Notes: a model not told the origin generated them from the sequence alone. Shown: positions 325 to 9,427, numbered from the stretch's first letter. The stretch: DNA of 9,427 nucleotides from a virus (IMGVR_UViG_2563366799_000002), one strand, 5' to 3'. Made by a program: numbers and translations.

Positions 325-346
325 CTGCGCACTTCACGGTGCGCAG
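325..346. promoter_or_regulatory. Perfect 8-bp inverted repeat CTGCGCAC-N6-GTGCGCAG, 17 bp upstream of the ybhJ start
   Basis: Read directly: ctgcgcac ttcacg gtgcgcag at 325-346, followed by GGAG (352-355) and the ybhJ ATG at 363. It could be an operator or a 5' leader hairpin. No T-run follows, so an intrinsic terminator is unlikely. Confidence 0.3.
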
Positions 347-362
347 ATATCTGGAGCATTTG

Positions 363-2624
363 ATGATCAAGTTATCTGAAAAAGGCGTGTTTCTCGCCAG
401 TAATAACGAAATAATTGCCGAAGAACATTTCACCGGCGAAATTAAAAAAGAAGAAGCCCAAAAAGGCACTATTGCCTGGTCTATTCTCTCTTCTCATAAT
501 ACGTCCGGAAATATGGATAAACTTAAAATTAAGTTTGATTCATTAGCCTCTCACGATATTACCTTTGTTGGTATTGTACAGACCGCTAAAGCGTCCGGTA
601 TGGAACGTTTCCCGCTGCCGTATGTGCTGACCAACTGCCATAACTCACTTTGCGCCGTCGGCGGCACCATTAACGGTGATGACCATGTTTTTGGTTTATC
701 GGCGGCTCAGCGTTATGGCGGTATTTTTGTGCCTCCGCATATTGCGGTCATCCATCAATATATGCGTGAGATGATGGCAGGTGGCGGCAAAATGATCCTC
801 GGGTCAGACAGTCACACCCGTTACGGTGCATTAGGGACAATGGCAGTCGGTGAGGGCGGCGGCGAGTTGGTAAAACAATTGCTTAATGACACTTGGGATA
901 TCGACTATCCGGGAGTTGTTGCGGTGCATCTGACCGGAAAACCAGCGCCGTATGTGGGGCCGCAGGATGTGGCGCTGGCTATCATCGGTGCCGTGTTCAA
1001 AAACGGCTACGTCAAAAACAAAGTGATGGAATTCGTAGGTCCCGGCGTTGCTGCGCTCTCTACCGATTTCCGTAACAGCGTTGACGTTATGACCACTGAA
1101 ACGACCTGTTTAAGTTCTGTCTGGCAAACCGATGAAGAAGTCCATAACTGGCTGGCGCTCCACGGTCGCGGCCAGGATTACTGCCAGCTTAACCCTCAAC
1201 CGATGGCGTACTACGATGGCTGCATCAGCGTTGATTTAAGCGCCATCAAACCAATGATTGCGCTGCCGTTCCACCCGAGCAACGTGTATGAAATCGACAC
1301 GCTGAACCAGAACCTGACCGACATTCTGCGTGAGATTGAAATTGAGTCCGAGCGCGTGGCGCACGGTAAAGCCAAACTCTCGCTGCTGGATAAAGTGGAA
1401 AATGGTCGCCTGAAAGTGCAGCAGGGGATTATCGCGGGCTGTTCTGGCGGTAACTATGAAAACGTTATCGCCGCAGCAAATGCGCTGCGCGGTCAATCCT
1501 GTGGTAACGACACCTTCTCGCTGGCGGTTTACCCGTCATCACAGCCGGTGTTTATGGATCTCGCCAAAAAAGGTGTGGTAGCAGATTTGATTGGCGCAGG
1601 CGCAATCATCAGAACCGCGTTCTGCGGCCCATGCTTTGGCGCGGGCGATACGCCAATCAACAACGGTTTGAGTATTCGCCACACCACGCGTAACTTCCCG
1701 AATCGCGAAGGCTCTAAGCCAGCCAATGGGCAGATGTCAGCGGTGGCGTTGATGGACGCTCGTTCTATCGCTGCGACTGCGGCAAACGGTGGCTATTTAA
1801 CTTCTGCCAGCGAACTCGATTGCTGGGACAACGTGCCGGAGTACGCCTTCGATGTAACGCCGTATAAAAACCGTGTTTATCAGGGCTTTGTTAAAGGGGC
1901 AACTCAGCAACCGCTGATTTACGGACCGAACATTAAAGACTGGCCGGAATTAGGTGCGCTGACTGACAATATCGTCCTCAAAGTGTGCTCGAAGATCCTC
2001 GACGAAGTGACCACCACCGACGAACTGATCCCTTCCGGTGAAACCTCTTCTTATCGTTCAAATCCGATTGGTCTGGCGGAGTTTACCCTGTCACGCCGCG
2101 ATCCAGGTTATGTTGGCAGAAGTAAAGCGACTGCTGAGCTGGAAAATCAGCGTCTGGCGGGGAATGTCAGCGAGCTGACAGAGGTGTTTGCGCGCATTAA
2201 GCAGATTGCTGGTCAGGAGCATATTGATCCGCTGCAAACTGAAATTGGCAGCATGGTCTATGCGGTGAAACCAGGCGATGGTTCTGCGCGTGAACAGGCG
2301 GCGAGCTGCCAGCGTGTGATTGGCGGTCTGGCGAATATTGCCGAGGAGTACGCGACTAAACGCTACCGTTCTAACGTCATCAACTGGGGGATGTTACCGC
2401 TGCAGATGGCGGAAGTGCCAACCTTTGAAGTGGGGGATTACATTTACATCCCTGGCATTAAAGCGGCGCTGGATAATCCGGGTACGACGTTTAAAGGTTA
2501 TGTGATCCATGAAGATGCGCCGGTAACGGAAATTACGCTCTATATGGAAAGTCTGACTGCTGAAGAGCGCGAGATTATCAAGGCGGGTAGTTTGATTAAC
2601 TTCAATAAAAACCGTCAGATGTAA
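363..2624 (+). CDS. ybhJ: Aconitase-family protein YbhJ (putative hydratase/dehydratase)
   Basis: The long ORF 339..2624 matches E. coli YbhJ as I recall it from [31 protein letters not shown] onward, so the start is placed at the ATG at 363 (GGAG 7 nt upstream). Aconitase-type motifs are present (GSDSHT; CGPCFG Fe-S ligand region). Stop TAA at 2622-2624. Confidence 0.93.
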
Positions 2625-2857: not shown

Positions 2858-4141
2858 TTACTTCTTCGCCTCTGCAACCACTTTGCTACCCACGCCGCGA
2901 TTATTGTATTCCCACATGCGGTTGTAGTTAGTGTCATTCAGATTGCGCTGTATTTCGTCGCTATCGTCAACGCTGCCGGTATTACCCGCAAATGGACGAT
3001 TGGAAATCACCGCATCGCCCCACGGTTTAACCGTGTTAAAACCTTCGTTGATGGCGCTATCACGGATCACCACCTGACCGTTGGTATTGGCATCAACATC
3101 CAGCGAGCGGCCCAGTTGTGCCACGCCATCACCGGAAGCATTGAAACGGCTGTTTACGGCGAGGAAACCGTAATAGATGTTGGACAGCGTAGCCGGTGCA
3201 AACACATACGCTTCTTGCTGAGTACGTGAGTTCACCACGCGGAATTCGGTGTTATCGAACACCACTGCGCCGCGACCAGAAACGATATCCACATCCCCTT
3301 CAATATAGCTGTTGGTCACCAGCGTACGCGGCTGACGGTTGGTTTCCAGACGGTTCTGCACACCGCTGTTGGTGACAAAGAAGGTGTTCTGACGACCGAG
3401 AATGTTAACGTTGTTAATCTGTACCTGGTCACCATCAGTACGCAGTGCCACCGCCGGATGGTTACCTGCATCTACGCTATCGCCCAGCGTGTTTTCGATG
3501 GTCAGATTTTGCAGTTGCAGGCCATTGTTTTGTGACCAGAAGACCGCAGAGCAGAGAACACCGATACTGTCGCTGCGTTTGCTCTGGCAGCTATCGTACA
3601 TATACCACGCTGGTTTACCTGGCATATATTTGCCGCGCGGGTTGACGTCGTGACGCCAGTCGGTAGGGCTCATGCCACCATCAAGGGAAAGCCCAATCTT
3701 CACATCAATCGGTTTTTCACCTGTACCGTACAGAGTAATTCCACCCGGAGCGGCAGGGACATATACCGTTCCCTGATACTCACCAGGCATCACGGCAATA
3801 TACTGGCGCTTGTTGGTACGCTTGATAATTGCCGCATCTACCGCCGCCTGAATCGTGGTATGCGTTACACCTTGAGTGCCCGCCGGGCCGACAACAAATT
3901 CAGGTTGCGCAGGCAGGGTAATCGGGGAAGGATTCCACGCTGCAGCACCTGGTGTCAGGGATGCAAAATAGTGTTGAGCATCGAAATTCTGCGCTTCTTT
4001 TGCCGACAGAATCGGGCGAGAAGAGGTACCAGGCGCGGTTTGATCAGAAGGACGTTGATCGGGCGGGGTTGAGCTACAGGCGGTCAGCGTCACGCCAAAA
4101 GCCAATGCCAGCGCCAGACGGGAAACTGAAAATGTGTTCAC
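2858..4141 (-). CDS. ybhC: Outer-membrane lipoprotein YbhC (pectinesterase-fold, putative acyl-CoA thioesterase)
   Basis: 427-aa ORF with signal peptide and lipobox (MNTFSVSRLALALAFGVTLTAC SS), matching E. coli YbhC as I recall it. GTG start at 4141, stop TAA at 2858-2860. It is the gene that borders attB-lambda on the gal side. Confidence 0.93.
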   Translation of the reverse strand: MNTFSVSRLALALAFGVTLTACSSTPPDQRPSDQTAPGTSSRPILSAKEAQNFDAQHYFASLTPGAAAWNPSPITLPAQPEFVVGPAGTQGVTHTTIQAAVDAAIIKRTNKRQYIAVMPGEYQGTVYVPAAPGGITLYGTGEKPIDVKIGLSLDGGMSPTDWRHDVNPRGKYMPGKPAWYMYDSCQSKRSDSIGVLCSAVFWSQNNGLQLQNLTIENTLGDSVDAGNHPAVALRTDGDQVQINNVNILGRQNTFFVTNSGVQNRLETNRQPRTLVTNSYIEGDVDIVSGRGAVVFDNTEFRVVNSRTQQEAYVFAPATLSNIYYGFLAVNSRFNASGDGVAQLGRSLDVDANTNGQVVIRDSAINEGFNTVKPWGDAVISNRPFAGNTGSVDDSDEIQRNLNDTNYNRMWEYNNRGVGSKVVAEAKK

Positions 4142-4180: not shown

Positions 4181-4280
4181 GAAGCCTGCTTTTTTATACT
4201 AAGTTGGCATTATAAAAAAGCATTGCTTATCAATTTGTTGCAACGAACAGGTCACTATCAGTCAAAATAAAATCATTATT
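4181..4280. other. Phage lambda attL (bacterial B arm - 15-bp core - phage P' arm)
   Basis: Core GCTTTTTTATACTAA at 4188-4202, with bacterial sequence to its left (tgaagcct) and the lambda P' arm to its right (gttggcattataaaaaagcattgcttatcaatttgttgcaacgaacaggtcactatcagtcaaaataaaatcattatttg). IHF H' site TATCAATTTGTTG at about 4227-4239. Int arm-type sites P'1 AGGTCACTAT (4249-4258), P'2 CAGTCAAAAT (4259-4268) and P'3 AAATCATTAT (4270-4279). Confidence 0.9.
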
Positions 4281-5346
4281 TGATTTCAATTTTGTCCCAC
4301 TCCCTGCCTCTGTCATCACGATACTGTGATGCCATGGTGTCCGACTTATGCCCGAGAAGATGTTGAGCAAACTTATCGCTTATCTGCTTCTCATAGAGTC
4401 TTGCAGACAAACTGCGCAACTCGTGAAAGGTAGGCGGATCCCCTTCGAAGGAAAGACCTGATGCTTTTCGTGCGCGCATAAAATACCTTGATACTGTGCC
4501 GGATGAAAGCGGTTCGCGACGAGTAGATGCAATTATGGTTTCTCCGCCAAGAATCTCTTTGCATTTATCAAGTGTTTCCTTCATTGATATTCCGAGAGCA
4601 TCAACATGCAATGCTGTTGGGATGGCAATTTTTACGCCTGTTTTGCTTTGCTCGACATAAAGATATCCATCTACGATATCAGACCACTTCATTTCGCATA
4701 AATCACCAACTCGTTGCCCGGTAACAACAGCCAGTTCCATTGCAAGTCTGAGCCAACATGGTGATGATTCTGCTGCTTGATAAATTTTCAGGTATTCGTC
4801 AGCCGTAAGTCTTGATCTCCTTACCTCTGATTTTGCTGCGCGAGTGGCAGCGACAGGGTTTGTTGTTATATGGCCTTCAGCTATTGCCTCTCGGAATGCA
4901 TCGCTCAGTGTTGATCTGATTAACTTGGCTGACGCCGCCTTGCCCTCGTTTATGTATCCATTGAGCATTGCCGCAATTTCTTTTGTGGTGATGTCTTCAA
5001 GTGGAGCATCAGGCAGACCCCTCCTTATTGCTTTAATTTTGCTCATGTAATTTATGAGTGTCTTCTGTTTGATTCCTCTGCTGGCCAGGATTTTTTCGTA
5101 GCGATCAAGCCATGAATGTAACGTAACGGAATTATCACTGTTGATTCTCGCTGTCAGAGGCTTGTGTTTGTGTCCTGAAAATAACTCAATGTTGGCCTGT
5201 ATAGCTTCAGTGATTGCGATTCGCCTGTCTCTGCCTAATCCAAACTCTTTACCCGTCCTTGGGTCCCTGTAGCAGTAATATCCATTGTTTCTTATATAAA
5301 GGTTAGGGGGTAAATCCCGGCGCTCATGACTTCGCCTTCTTCCCAT
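4276..5346 (-). CDS. int: Lambda-type integrase Int (tyrosine recombinase), apparently intact
   Basis: 356-aa ORF, 1071 nt, MGRRRSHERRDLPPNLYIRNNGYYCYRDPRTGKEF...QYRDDRGREWDKIEIK. Length, position relative to att and sequence match lambda Int as far as I can recall. The catalytic R..K..HxxR..H..Y context is present (HELRSL, GHKSDTMASQY). Confidence 0.95.
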   Translation of the reverse strand: MGRRRSHERRDLPPNLYIRNNGYYCYRDPRTGKEFGLGRDRRIAITEAIQANIELFSGHKHKPLTARINSDNSVTLHSWLDRYEKILASRGIKQKTLINYMSKIKAIRRGLPDAPLEDITTKEIAAMLNGYINEGKAASAKLIRSTLSDAFREAIAEGHITTNPVAATRAAKSEVRRSRLTADEYLKIYQAAESSPCWLRLAMELAVVTGQRVGDLCEMKWSDIVDGYLYVEQSKTGVKIAIPTALHVDALGISMKETLDKCKEILGGETIIASTRREPLSSGTVSRYFMRARKASGLSFEGDPPTFHELRSLSARLYEKQISDKFAQHLLGHKSDTMASQYRDDRGREWDKIEIK

Positions 5347-5542
5347 TTCTGATCCTCTTCAAAAGGCTACCTGTTACTGGTCGATTTAAGTCAACCTTTA
5401 CCGCTGATTCGTGGAACAGATACTCTCTTCCATCCTTAACCGGAGGAGGGAATATCCTGCATTCGCGCACCCATCGACGAACTGTTTCAAGGCTTCTTGG
5501 GCGTCGCTGGCGAGCGTTCCACTCCTGAAGTGTCAAGTACAT
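5324..5542 (-). CDS. xis: Lambda-type excisionase Xis
   Basis: 72-aa ORF MYLTLQEWNARQRRPRSLETVRRWVRECRIFPPPVKDGREYLFHESAVKVDLNRPVTGSLLKRIRNGKKAKS, matching lambda Xis. Its 3' end overlaps the int start by 23 nt as in lambda. Confidence 0.95.
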   Translation of the reverse strand: MYLTLQEWNARQRRPRSLETVRRWVRECRIFPPPVKDGREYLFHESAVKVDLNRPVTGSLLKRIRNGKKAKS

Positions 5543-5568
5543 CGCAAAGTCTCCGCAATTACACGCAA

Positions 5569-5592
5569 GAAAAAACCGCCATCAGGCGGCTT
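5569..5592 (-). terminator. Candidate intrinsic terminator hairpin (minus strand) between orf55 and xis
   Basis: Minus-strand reading AAG CCGCC TGAT GGCGG TTTTTTT: a 5-bp GC stem with 4-nt loop followed by a 7-T run. The stop codon of orf55 (TGA) sits in the loop. The stem is short, so its strength is uncertain. Confidence 0.45.
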
Positions 5593-5749
5593 GGTGTTCT
5601 TTCAGTTCTTCAATTCGAATATTGGTTACGTCTGCATGTGCTATCTGCGCCCACAGCATCCAGTGGTCATAGCAGTCGCTGATGTTCTCGGCTTCGATAA
5701 CTCTGTTGAATGGTTCTCCATTCCATTCACCTGTAACTCGGAAGTGCAT
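5582..5749 (-). CDS. Small lambda ORF (orf55-like hypothetical protein, 55 aa)
   Basis: Not in the ORF track (below its length cutoff). My own translation of the minus strand: MHFRVTGEWNGEPFNRVIEAENISDCYDHWMLWAQIAHADVTNIRIEELKEHQAA*. The 168-nt length and the 39-nt gap to xis match the small hypothetical ORF that follows xis in lambda, as I recall the map. Confidence 0.6.
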   Translation of the reverse strand: MHFRVTGEWNGEPFNRVIEAENISDCYDHWMLWAQIAHADVTNIRIEELKEHQAA

Positions 5750-5752
5750 TTA

Positions 5753-6226
5753 TCATCGCCATAAAACAAAACTCGCCGTAGCGAGTTCAGATAAACCATC
5801 CGGAATTACCGGAGAGTTGCCGGGTTCTTTAATGTGCAAGCGAGGCTCACCATCTTTTGGTTCAGGCCACTGGCGCTCCATGTTGATCTTCAATTTATCT
5901 TCCATAGCAGCGGTAATTTCAGCATCGCTGATGCCAGCACGGCGCTGTGCATCCCACAACAGGAAATGCATATCAGCCCACTCGCTGAGATCGTCTGGTT
6001 CGGCTGCGGCTTCCAGAGCCTCTTTTGAGAGGTGTTTCAGTGGACCAATGGGGCCAACGCAGCCAAATGTGGAGTCAGACCATTTGGCATGCTCGTGGCG
6101 AATCAGTTCGCGTTCCAGTGATGCCAGTGCAATTCGTGCCAGTTCCATTTGTTCGCCACGAGTAAGCCCGTTTTCAAGCGGATTTTTAATGAACAATTCA
6201 ATACGTTCTTTGGTAATAGTGGTCAT
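5753..6226 (-). CDS. Phage protein with MazG/HisE-like nucleotide pyrophosphohydrolase motif (157 aa); not a lambda gene
   Basis: ORF with an AGGA ribosome-binding site 7-8 nt upstream of its ATG and a stop 3 nt before the orf55 start. It contains the E-x2-E...E-x2-D pattern (KEALEAAAE...SEWADMHFLLW) typical of all-alpha NTP pyrophosphohydrolases. It occupies the position where lambda carries ea8.5/ea22 but does not resemble them. The function is a motif-based inference. Confidence 0.6.
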   Translation of the reverse strand: MTTITKERIELFIKNPLENGLTRGEQMELARIALASLERELIRHEHAKWSDSTFGCVGPIGPLKHLSKEALEAAAEPDDLSEWADMHFLLWDAQRRAGISDAEITAAMEDKLKINMERQWPEPKDGEPRLHIKEPGNSPVIPDGLSELATASFVLWR

Positions 6227-6236
6227 TTGTTAGTCC

Positions 6237-6517
6237 TTAAACTGCTAGTTGCAATTGCATTTCAAAGCGGTCGCGTTGTTCACAATACGCAAGAGAACCA
6301 GGGCTATTGTGTGCCTCAATCCGTTCTACCATTAATGCTGCGCGTGTCTCTTTACTTGCAGGTGCATAAGCCCCAGACCAGGCTTTATCAATACCGATGT
6401 TTCGAGCGACGTTCGTACTATCTGCGCTGGCTAAGGGTAATTTTGTGAATATCAGCGGATTTAACATGCGCAATCCATGTAGTTTCGTAACCGGCTGCCA
6501 GAAAAATGCATTCCGTG
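6237..6517 (-). pseudogene. Possible 3' remnant of an unknown gene in the non-lambda substitution
   Basis: Of the three minus-strand frames across the non-lambda segment, only one stays open from the exo junction (about 6517) to a TAA at 6237, just upstream of the next gene's ribosome-binding site ([93 protein letters not shown]). An internal ATG at 6473 would give the 78-aa ORF in the track. No family recognised. Confidence 0.3.
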
Positions 6518-6895
6518 GTTGCCGTCACTGCATAAACCATCGGGAGAGCAGGCGGTGCGCATACTTTCGTCGCGATAGATGATCGGGGATTCAGTAACAT
6601 TAACGCCGGAAGTGAACTCAAAGAGGGTTCTGGCGTCGTTCTCGTACTGTTTTCCCCAGGCCAGCGCCTTAGCGTTAACTTCCGGAGCCACACCGGTGCA
6701 AACCTCAGCAAGCAGGGTGTGGAAGTAGGACATTTTCATGTCAGGCCACTTCTTTCCTGAGCGGGGCTTTGCTATCACGTTGTGAACTTCTGAAGCGGTG
6801 ATGACGCCGAGCCGTAATTTGTGCCATGCATCATCCCCCTGTTCGACAGCTCTCACGTCGATCCCGGTACGCTGCAGGATAATGTCCGGTGTCAT
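6461..6895 (-). pseudogene. exo: Lambda exonuclease (Red alpha / Exo), truncated after codon 126 with an 18-codon foreign tail
   Basis: Residues 1-126 ([22 protein letters not shown]...[15 protein letters not shown]) match lambda Exo. After GACGGCAAC (about 6518) the sequence diverges and reads [18 protein letters not shown] instead of GLELKCPFTSRDF.... The C-terminal 100 residues of the 226-aa protein are absent, including the region I recall as carrying catalytic E129/K131. Confidence 0.85.
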
Positions 6896-7677
6896 GCTGC
6901 CACCTTCTGCTCAGTGGCTTTCTGTTTCAGGAATCCAAGAGCTTTCACTGCTTCGGCCTGTGTCAGTTCTGACGATGCTCGAATGTCGCGGCGAAATATC
7001 TGGGAACAGAGCGGCAATAAGTCGTCATCCCATGTTTTATCCAGGGCGATCAGCAGAGTGTTAATCTCCTGCATGGTTTCATCGTTAACCGGAGTGATAT
7101 CGCGTTCCGGCTGACGTTCTGCAGTGTATGCGGTATTTTCGACAATGCGCTCGGCTTCATCCTTGTCATAGATACCAGCAAATCCGAAGGCGAGACGGGC
7201 ACACTGAATCATGGCTTTATGCCGTAACATCCGTTTGGGATGCGACTGCCACGGCCCCGTGATTTCTCTGCCTTCGCGGGTTTTGAATGGTTCGCGGCGG
7301 CATTCATCCATCCATTCGGTAACGCAGATCGGATGATTGCGGTCCTTGCGGTAAATCCGGCATGTACAGGATTCATTGTCCTGCTCAAAGTCCATGCCAT
7401 CAAACTGCTGGTTTTCATTGATGATGCGGGACCAGCCATCAACGCCCACCACCGGAACGATGCCGTTCTGCTTGTCAGGAAAGGCGTAAATTTCTTTCGT
7501 CCACGGATTAAGGCCGTACTGGTTGGCGACGATCAGCAATGCGATGAACTGCGCATCGCTGGCATCGCCTTTAAATGCCGTCTGGCGAAGAGTGGTGATC
7601 AGTTCCTGTGGGTCGACAGAATCCATGCCGACACGTTCAGCCAGCTTCCCTGCCAGCGTTGCGAGTGCTGTACTCAT
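6892..7677 (-). CDS. bet: Lambda Red beta (Bet) single-strand annealing protein, full length
   Basis: 261-aa [69 protein letters not shown]...KATEQKVAA, matching lambda Bet. Its stop overlaps the exo ATG (ATGA) as in lambda. Confidence 0.95.
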
Positions 7678-7682
7678 CCGTT

Positions 7683-7793
7683 TTATACCTCTGAATCAAT
7701 ATCAACCTGGTGGTGAGCAATGGTTTCAACCATGTACCGGATGTGTTCTGCCATGCGCTCCTGAAACTCAACATCGTCATCAAACGCACGGGT
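7683..7793 (-). pseudogene. gam: Lambda gam, 3' remnant only (last ~35 codons)
   Basis: Minus-strand translation ...[36 protein letters not shown] equals the Gam C-terminus and lies 5 nt from the bet start as in lambda. Upstream of about 7794 the frame reads ...[12 protein letters not shown] and hits a stop, so there is no Gam N-terminus. Confidence 0.8.
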
Positions 7794-7822
7794 ATCTGGC
7801 TGAAAGAGGGGGTTATTAAGGC

Positions 7823-8185
7823 GTGAATACCTACAGCATCACATTACCCTGGCCTCCGAGCAATAATCGCTATTACCGCCATAATCGCGGACGCACGCAC
7901 ATCAGCGCAGAGGGGCAGGCATACCGCGATAACGTCGCCCGAATCATTAAAAACGCAATGCTAGATATCGGCCTGGCTATGCCTGTGAAAATCCGCATTG
8001 AGTGCCACATGCCGGATCGCCGTCGCCGTGACCTGGATAATCTGCAAAAAGCCGCTTTTGACGCACTCACTAAAGCAGGTTTCTGGCTGGATGATGCTCA
8101 GGTCGTTGATTACCGCGTTGTGAAGATGCCTGTTACCAAAGGTGGGAGGCTGGAACTGACCATCACCGAAATGGGGAATGAATGA
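7823..8185 (+). CDS. rusA: Holliday-junction resolvase RusA (lambdoid nin-region type)
   Basis: 120-aa ORF (GTG start) [26 protein letters not shown]...[12 protein letters not shown], matching the DLP12 RusA of E. coli as I recall it. Confidence 0.9.
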
Positions 8186-8322
8186 TGTTTGAGTTTAATA
8201 TGGCAGAACTTCTTCGCCACCGCTGGGGGCGTCTGCGCTTATATCGTTTCCCCGGTTCTGTTTTGACCGATTACCGAATACTGAAGAATTACGCCAAAAC
8301 ACTGACAGGAGCAGGAGTATGA
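8182..8322 (+). CDS. ylcG: Small ORF YlcG-like (46 aa) between rusA and Q
   Basis: My own translation: [46 protein letters not shown]. The start overlaps the rusA stop (ATGA). It corresponds to the small ylcG ORF between rusA and quuD in DLP12. Below the ORF-track cutoff. Confidence 0.55.
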
Positions 8323-8407
8323 AGTCAGAGATAACAATCAACTAATACTGTTTTGTTGATTTTTGCTTGTAATTGGCGTTCTGGTCTGAGTTTTGTGGAG
8401 TAAGTTG

Positions 8408-8785
8408 ATGCGTGATATTCAGATGGTTCTTGAGCGTTGGGGAGCGTGGGCGGCTAATAATCATGAAGATGTGACCTGGTCGTCCATTGCCGCCGGTTTT
8501 AAGGGATTAATTCCTTCAAAAGTAAAATCTCGCCCACAATGTTGTGACGATGACGCGATGATCATTTGCGGGTGCATGGCCCGTCTGAAAAAGAACAACA
8601 GCGATTTGCATGATTTATTGGTGGACTATTATGTCGGCGGCATGACTTTTATGGCGCTTGCACGTAAGCATGGGCGATCTGATTGTTGGGTTGGCAGGAT
8701 GCTTCAGAAAGCTGAGGGCGTAGTGGAGGGTATGCTGATGGTGTTGGTTCTCCGATTGGAGATGGATGCTGATTGTTCGAAATAA
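8408..8785 (+). CDS. Late-gene antiterminator Q (phage 82 / DLP12 QuuD type)
   Basis: [65 protein letters not shown]... with cysteine cluster. The start is placed at the ATG at 8408 (GGAG 8 nt upstream) rather than the TTG used by the ORF track. It follows rusA-ylcG as in DLP12. Confidence 0.85.
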
Positions 8786-8883
8786 TTAAAGGAAAAGTTG
8801 CTGTCTGATTGTCATTAGTCTAACATTTTAAATGTTGGAATCGCAACGTAGTTATTATCATATAACAGCTTGTTTCCTGATTT
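8786..8883 (+). promoter_or_regulatory. Candidate Q-dependent late promoter region (pR'-like) downstream of Q
   Basis: AT-rich 100 bp directly after Q, where lambdoid phages carry pR' and the Q-utilisation site. Possible hexamers: TTGCTG (8798-8803), 17 bp, TAACAT (8821-8826); or TTGGAA (8835-8840) with TATCAT (8856-8861). The assignment is positional and not certain. Confidence 0.35.
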
Positions 8884-8912
8884 AGCCAGCCTCCCCAAAG
8901 GCTGGTTTTTTT
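8884..8912 (+). terminator. Intrinsic terminator (tR'-like) on the plus strand
   Basis: AGCCAGCC tccccaaa GGCTGG followed by TTTTTTT (8906-8912): a GC-rich stem-loop with a U-run in the plus orientation only. Confidence 0.6.
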
Positions 8913-8940
8913 CTAATAAGTATTATTTCGGGTAGGGATT

Positions 8941-9145
8941 TTATTGTTTAACCCATAATAATTCATTGACATTGAATCCCAACTTTTGAGCGGTTCGCAC
9001 ATAGTCTGCTTTTACTTTATCTGGAATAGTTGGGGTCCTTGCCAGAATCCATAGGTATTCTCTGTTCGGACCACTGACAAGAGCATACTTATACTCATCA
9101 TCCAGTTTGATTACATTATAGCCACCATAGAAGGGGCCAAAAAAC
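8941..9145 (-). pseudogene. Bacterial lipocalin (Blc-family) gene, C-terminal ~68 codons only; 5' part removed by the IS1 insertion
   Basis: Minus-strand translation ...LPFFGPFYGGYNVIKLDDEYKYALVSGPNREYLWILARTPTIPDKVKADYVRTAQKLGFNVNELLWVKQ* aligns with the C-terminal third of E. coli Blc (SFFGPFYGGYNVIALDREYRHALVCGPDRDYLWILSRTPTISDEV...FIWVQQ, from memory) but is clearly divergent. The frame runs straight into the IS1 terminal repeat at 9146. The M in the ORF track is a TTG inside IS1. The segment is visibly AT-rich. Confidence 0.75.
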
Positions 9146-9427
9146 GGTAATGACTCCAACTTATTGATAGTGTTTTATGTTCAGATAATGCCCGATGACT
9201 TTGTCATGCAGCTCCACCGATTTTGAGAACGACAGCGACTTCCGTCCCAGCCGTGCCAGGTGCTGCCTCAGATTCAGGTTATGCCGCTCAATTCGCTGCG
9301 TATATCGCTTGCTGATTACGCGAAGCTTTCCCTTCAGGCGGGATTCATACAGCGGCCAGCCATCCGTCATCCATATCACCACGTCAAAGGGTGACAGCAG
9401 GCTCATAAGACGCCCCAGCGTCGCCAT
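9146..9427 (-). mobile_element. IS1 insertion sequence, terminal 282 bp (element continues beyond window end)
   Basis: GGTAATGACTCCAACTTATTGATAGTGT at 9146 onward is the IS1 terminal inverted repeat, followed by the insB 3' coding sequence. Confidence 0.9.
9161..9427 (-). CDS. insB: IS1 transposase InsB (InsAB'), C-terminal 88 codons (partial)
   Basis: Minus-strand [91 protein letters not shown] is the IS1 InsB C-terminus. The gene runs off the window edge. Confidence 0.9.

Follow-up and report, generated by a model that had tools for sequence, protein, structure and literature searches.

Site-specific excision of a lambda prophage by recombination between attL and attR requires Xis, and lambda Xis comes from the pL transcript, on which terminators are passed solely because N modifies RNA polymerase at nutL. 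The promoter pI is nearly inactive without CII, and since its transcript starts after the xis start codon, Int is made from it and Xis is not. These dependencies bear directly on defective prophages, which may lose regulatory inputs while keeping the recombination genes themselves.

Several groups of degraded prophages with such features have been described in Escherichia coli. The K-12 cryptic prophages DLP12, Rac, e14, CPS-53/KplE1 and CP4-57 are defective lambdoid remnants in which int, xis and both att sites persist; they excise infrequently and, for the most part, with no SOS induction (PMC3105296, PMC4632033). Excision was recorded for seven of the nine K-12 cryptic prophages, in four of them at less than 1 per 100,000 cells, and e14 alone responds to mitomycin C (PMC3105296); excision of Rac is regulated (PMC4632033). 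In O157 Sakai, prophage Sp7 has no repressor, no antirepressor and a fragmented replication gene, and lacks most morphogenesis genes, yet still circularises spontaneously; two other prophages of the same strain circularise without a functional excisionase, and interactions between prophages complement defects (PMC2669165). Finally, prophage remnants that carry dgcX have been described at the lambda attB (PMC4287979), among them those of O104:H4, ETEC E24377A and H10407, with a MASE4-GGDEF diguanylate cyclase gene at the attR end.

Here, we describe a 9,427-nucleotide stretch of DNA (hereafter the window) that includes the left end of a lambdoid prophage, one that is young, decayed by deletion and equipped with an HK97/lambda-type recombination module. 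The prophage is integrated in an E. coli chromosome (GCA_000408645.1) at the classical lambda attB, flanked by ybhC and ybhB. Relative to the module of lambda and HK97, the att core, the P' arm, the CII box of pI and the upstream terminator are the same as in lambda, whereas both inputs are cut: pI is deprived of CII, and pL, N and nutL, on which read-through into xis depends, are missing. The K-12 cryptic prophages use another attachment site and integrase type, whereas the present element combines the canonical lambda attB, a site that is empty in K-12, with a lambda-type Int; by annotation, the rusA-ylcG-Q-lysis block of DLP12 is similar to that of the remnant. The O157 Sakai defective prophages are likewise degraded, although their circularisation was shown by experiment while ours is a reading of sequence. 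With the dgcX remnants the element shares its chromosomal site, although the cyclase of the present lineage lies outside the window and is likened to DgcX by type. The window thus presents an ordinary cryptic prophage end, in a situation that is common, already known and well understood, and we propose that its int/xis module is structurally competent but transcriptionally stranded.

Host setting

The window is a 100% match to scaffold KE137211.1 of GCA_000408645.1, where it stands in reverse orientation with runs of N bordering both sides. Every protein with exact window sequences is labelled Escherichia coli. A Shigella origin, which had been suspected from the dense IS elements and the lack of a matching complete E. 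coli genome, was rejected since the exact proteins all carry that label. What lies farther right was read from L016 (on JBEWRX010000002.1), a same-lineage assembly without gaps, which departs from the window sequence at 4 positions and shows 100% identity over 5 kb beyond the window's right edge.

The left part of the window is chromosomal. The end portion of an IS5 copy (positions 1 to ~249), inserted just upstream of ybhJ, is followed by ybhJ itself (339-2624, plus strand) and by ybhC (2858-4141, minus strand), the host gene on the gal side of the lambda attachment site, which was recognised by its ORF and is annotated as ybhC in matching genomes. The intergenic region between ybhJ and ybhC (2625-2857) contains REP-like palindromic repeat units, seen as near-duplicate short ORFs on both strands. 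On the other side of ybhJ, the ybhI gene that neighbours the IS5 copy, as read in the upstream sequence of L016 and of a second locus (L003), is shortened, with 361 aa vs 477. The int gene has the same orientation as ybhC. An Rfam scan of the whole window returned zero families.

Attachment site, integrase and excisionase

The attL site (B-O-P') occupies 4181-4279 on the plus strand and was delimited by a core match, by comparison of O and P' with lambda attP and by its bacterial B side. Its 15-bp core (GCTTTTTTATACTAA, 4188-4202) has 0 mismatches, against a chance expectation of 0.2 matches at up to 3 mismatches, and includes the 7-bp overlap TTTATAC at 4193-4199. The sequence of 4188-4279, comprising the core, the P' arm and the int stop codon, is 100% identical to lambda attP, while to the left of the core lies the bacterial B arm, contiguous with ybhC. 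We take the IHF H' core to lie at 4228-4240 and the arm-type sites P'1-P'3 to lie at ~4248-4279, overlapping the int stop codon, both placements being taken from the lambda att map. All components of a lambda attL are therefore present: the B arm, the 15-bp core, and the P' arm with H' and P'1-P'3.

The int gene (4276-5346, minus strand), defined by its ORF, Pfam and alignments, encodes a 356-aa lambda integrase of the HK97-type allele, bearing D133N. Three substitutions, D133N, H164P and I248V, separate it from lambda Int (99.2% identical), and D133N alone separates it from Int of the viable phage HK97 (99.7% identical). All six catalytic residues (R212, K235, H308, R311, H333 and Y342) are present at the lambda positions, Pfam recognises Arm-DNA-bind_1 (PF09003) at residues 1-69 as well as Phage_integrase (E = 3e-40), and the protein aligns over residues 1-356 with the solved lambda Int chains 5j0n and 1z1g. 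In catalytic residues, arm domain and length it is a lambda-type integrase, i.e. a heterobivalent tyrosine recombinase. D133N is absent from all phage records searched, yet common among prophages: the identical Int is encoded beside ybhC by several different prophages that keep cI, cro, cII and recombination genes, some of which also keep N, O and a replication helicase. D133N is therefore a common allele, and probably a neutral one.

The xis gene (5324-5542, minus strand), identified by the same means, encodes 72 aa and overlaps int by 23 nt, as in lambda. Xis carries G59S relative to lambda Xis and is identical to the Xis proteins of HK97 and 434; it belongs to the Exc family (PF07825, E = 4e-41), and residues 1-72 match the solved Xis 1pm6. 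It is thus a full-length, 72-aa Exc-family protein, as expected of the lambda excisionase, a recombination directionality factor. The initial annotation had described Int and Xis as full-length and lambda-like and attL as intact; the lengths, catalytic residues, domains and structure matches bear out the former, and the exact core, the lambda P' arm and the B arm joined to ybhC bear out the latter.

Extent of the decay

Homology to lambda extends over 4188-5795 (lambda 27724-29331), a 31-nt scrap of orf61, and 6518-7794 (lambda 31651-32927). Upstream of xis, and likewise on the minus strand, lie a 55-aa ORF equivalent to lambda lambdap35 (5582-5749; no Pfam match), a gene for a 157-aa MazG-like dATP/dGTP pyrophosphohydrolase (5753-6226; PF04447, E = 4e-42) and a 78-aa ORF (6237-6473); the terminator scan also picked out a second terminator-like hairpin at 5769-5788 on this strand. 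The MazG-like gene and the 78-aa ORF take the place of lambda ea8.5/ea22, lambda homology ending at 5795. Farther along the minus strand, exo (6461-6895) is truncated, its first 126 residues being the N-terminal lambda residues and its last 18 unrelated, whereas bet (6892-7677) is intact, with 261 aa and one substitution vs lambda. Only the last 112 nt of gam remain (7683-7794), the lambda alignment ending at 7794, which is lambda 32927. Bet is thus an orphan single-strand annealing protein, its partner exo having been cut to 126 residues and gam almost wholly deleted.

At about 7783-7795, the gam remnant is joined to the 3' end of ybcO through an imperfect microhomology, with breakpoints mapped against the less decayed prophages 1EC187 and H6. 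The deletion takes out kil, cIII, N, nutL, pL, cI, cro, cII, O, P and most of the nin region. The gam'-ybcO'/rusA junction occurs in 0 of 5,426 complete E. coli genomes, and a larger collection contains the remnant, its exo truncated in exactly this way, on 92 contigs from many assemblies, which marks the deletion as a lineage marker rather than a new kind of element. Beyond the junction, a surviving fragment of the right operon carries rusA (7823-8185), ylcG (8182-8322) and the Q antiterminator gene (8408-8785), all on the plus strand. A 3' fragment of a lipocalin gene follows (8941-9159, minus strand), cut by an IS1 copy that extends from ~9147 to the window end at 9427.

The retained ORFs int, xis, bet, rusA, ylcG and Q are intact and have 98-99% nucleotide identity to lambda. 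Damage in the remnant consists of deletions and IS elements only, with no point-mutational decay in retained ORFs. Since this holds for every one of them, the intactness of int and xis needs no special explanation: it reflects the youth of the remnant, in which decay ran via deletions and IS insertions. Selection for intact int and xis was considered and rejected on the same grounds.

The right part of the remnant and attR

In L016, the prophage continues to the right of the window with an IS1/corA-like/IS1 segment within the lipocalin gene, followed by ybgA, an AraC-type gene, the lysis cassette and genes for DUF1398 and DUF3950 proteins, and farther on by cosN, a truncated Nu1 fusion and a MASE4-GGDEF diguanylate cyclase gene, inside which the L016 locus ends. 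The remnant as a whole measures roughly 16.5 kb, and in L016 and around it is heavily loaded with IS1 and IS5. The IS1, corA-like transporter, IS1 composite spans L016 10754-13965, and in relatives (L011-L014, L018, L019) its IS1 copies have mediated several rearrangements and deletions. At L016 19298-20378, cosN (GGGCGGCGACCT) is kept and Nu1 is truncated, joined out of frame to a tail-fibre-assembly remnant. A search of complete E. coli genomes for the junction of this Nu1 fusion with the cyclase gene found none with the same architecture, and a homologue search with the lineage-specific fusion gave zero exact matches. The cyclase itself may be the dgcX described at the lambda attB.

The L016 gene table lacks cI, cro, cII, N, O, P and all head and tail genes. 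Taken together, the junction in the window and the genes of L016 identify a defective lambdoid prophage from which immunity, replication and morphogenesis genes are gone. The earlier statement that repressor and replication functions had been lost is confirmed by the gam'-ybcO' junction and by the absence of cI, cro, cII, O and P from L016.

No second core was found within the window, and attR lies outside it, in agreement with the initial annotation, which had made excision hinge on an attR beyond the window. In every relative with its right end read, a core adjoins ybhB; it is exact in H6, 1EC187, L011 and L012 and has one mismatch in L034. In the four relatives with the exact core, the P arm is a nearly exact match to HK97 attP that takes in both arm sites (P1 and P2) and the sib/tI hairpin. 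The L034 element (CP095454.1) is a ~10-kb remnant between ybhB and ybhC that keeps int and xis, and its attR core carries a 1-nt change (ACTTTTTTATACTAA, L034 950-980). Separate tallies over the same 5,426 complete E. coli genomes gave 1,913 (~35%) with the ybhC-attL-int junction and 1,921 with the P-arm-core-ybhB junction. L016 keeps the cyclase gene, which in relatives lies ~0.65 kb from attR. Judged from these relatives, attR is very probably present in the source genome.

The same site in another genome illustrates a further role that had been suggested for the remnant, namely as an integration target. In CP148427.1 (loci L029 and L030), two prophages stand in tandem, each encoding the identical Int, and the second has, on its int-proximal side, a P-O-P' junction whose core is a variant (AACTTTTTATCCTAAG), as expected if a second phage integrates at the end of a resident one. 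The arrangement lends support to that suggestion.

Expression of int and xis

The sequence from xis upstream to 5640, which takes in the pI box and the terminator beyond it, is identical to lambda. The pI promoter region lies at 5537-5568 on the minus strand, and its CII box (TTGCGTGTAATTGC, 5555-5568) is intact as TTGC-N6-TTGC; at the same position, the record of phage 434 annotates a CII binding site and 'pI promoter; CII-controlled'. The claim that pL is gone and pI left is accordingly upheld by the deletion, which takes pL, and by this intact box.

Directly upstream of pI and xis, the terminator scan identified an intrinsic terminator on the minus strand (5569-5592), composed of GCCGCC-TGAT-GGCGG followed by a T run, with a folding energy of -16.1 kcal/mol (z = -2.7). 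Phages 434 and HK97 have a differing hairpin at exactly this position, with both arms changed; a terminator is annotated there in the 434 record and a putative terminator in that of HK97. The change of both arms at the same place looks like compensatory conservation and argues for a conserved function. The name lambda tL3 was not adopted for this terminator: a paper that employs the name states no coordinates for it, the lambda records carry no annotation there, and the assignment draws on those of 434 and HK97.

A minus-strand promoter scan upstream of xis gave zero matches at 9/12 or better. With looser settings, scanning 5543-9160 returned 12 weak promoter matches vs 12.6 +/- 3.8 in shuffled sequence, with zero between 5543 and 6898. 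Thus, the sequence offers neither route by which Xis and Int could be co-expressed, that is, pL with N and nutL, or another upstream promoter. Since Xis is reachable only from upstream, behind the terminator, and since N, nutL and pL are deleted and no promoter stands above chance, we infer that the module is transcriptionally stranded. Promoter prediction is weak evidence, and low-level transcription, transcription from non-sigma-70 promoters or read-out from IS1 (9147-9427) could reach xis; terminators leak. The initial annotation had also held that, with no cI, int and xis are released from prophage repression. The absence of cI stands, while the derepression does not: the promoter that cI controls is deleted as well, pI needs the deleted CII and yields no Xis, and xis lies behind a terminator.

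Fate of the remnant

We consider it probable that the element is a stranded deletion remnant whose intact recombination module is stably carried, with excision that is at most rare and not inducible by DNA damage, and that becomes efficient only where Int and Xis are supplied in trans. A single illegitimate deletion fused the 3' end of gam to that of ybcO, removing pL, N with nutL, cI, cro, cII, O and P. The CII box of pI was thereby left without CII, at a promoter that in lambda gives Int and not Xis, while transcription of xis could come only from upstream, past an N-dependent terminator, with no recognisable promoter between that terminator and the IS1 at the window end. On these premises, the remnant would sit stably in the chromosome and excise very rarely at most, limited by the supply of Xis and within the low range of most K-12 cryptic prophages, and no response to DNA damage would be expected from the element itself. 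Efficient excision would be expected only if the proteins came from another phage, resident in the same cell or infecting it, with matching Int/Xis specificity (lambda, 434, HK97 or relatives), and the excised circle, being unable to replicate, would be lost.

Along the lines of the initial annotation, the remnant itself, freed of cI, might make enough Int and Xis to excise at a readily detectable frequency as a non-replicating circle and so be disappearing from the population. We regard this as unlikely: although every cis- and trans-acting part visible in the window is intact, xis is without a promoter, an intact terminator stands directly upstream of it, and pI, besides requiring the deleted CII, yields no Xis. 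The 92 contigs on which the same remnant occurs with the exact truncated exo, across many assemblies, also suggest stable inheritance. Precedents nevertheless speak for self-excision, given that repressor-less degraded O157 prophages excise spontaneously (PMC2669165) and that excision products were obtained from seven of nine K-12 cryptic prophages (PMC3105296); because Sp7 and the excisionase-less O157 Sakai prophages circularise, spontaneous excision of the remnant could still be appreciable.

A second set of alternatives departs from the stranded-remnant reading at other points. Were attR missing or damaged in the source genome, for example by IS1 or IS5, Int and Xis would be partnerless and the element locked in; attR does lie outside the window, both IS elements abound in the element, and one related remnant has the 1-nt change in its attR core. 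This we judge very unlikely, as attR stands beside ybhB in every relative with its right end read, the attL and attR junction counts are nearly equal, and L016 retains the dgcX-type gene found so close to attR in its relatives. Barely credible is domestication, in which the host would keep int and xis by selection for some use other than prophage excision: the two genes are indeed intact next to deleted neighbours, but this is not special among retained ORFs that all lack point-mutational decay, the same alleles occur in prophages with an immunity region, some with replication genes, and the promoter scans gave no expression signal.

Implications

It is highly improbable that the ~16.5-kb remnant acts as a helper-dependent mobilisable island. 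The parts kept comprise attL, Int, Xis, Bet, RusA, Q, the lysis cassette and cosN, plus attR by inference from relatives, and the cargo would be the dgcX-type diguanylate cyclase, the corA-like transporter between two IS1 copies and the MazG-like enzyme. A lambda- or HK97-type phage would then excise the remnant in trans, and recombination via the 98-99% identical int-xis and bet segments, or co-packaging through cos, would spread the cargo among strains.

Under the stranded-remnant reading that we favour, the locus is a clean example of prophage decay via deletion and IS insertion in which the recombination module is preserved but its regulation is lost, with little import beyond annotation. 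The share of complete E. coli genomes with a lambda-type int beside ybhC, about 35%, is possibly useful as survey context. For the source strain, the lambda attB is occupied and the remnant confers no immunity, so that incoming lambda-type phages or lambda-att vectors would meet attL and attR instead of attB, and could excise the remnant or recombine with it.
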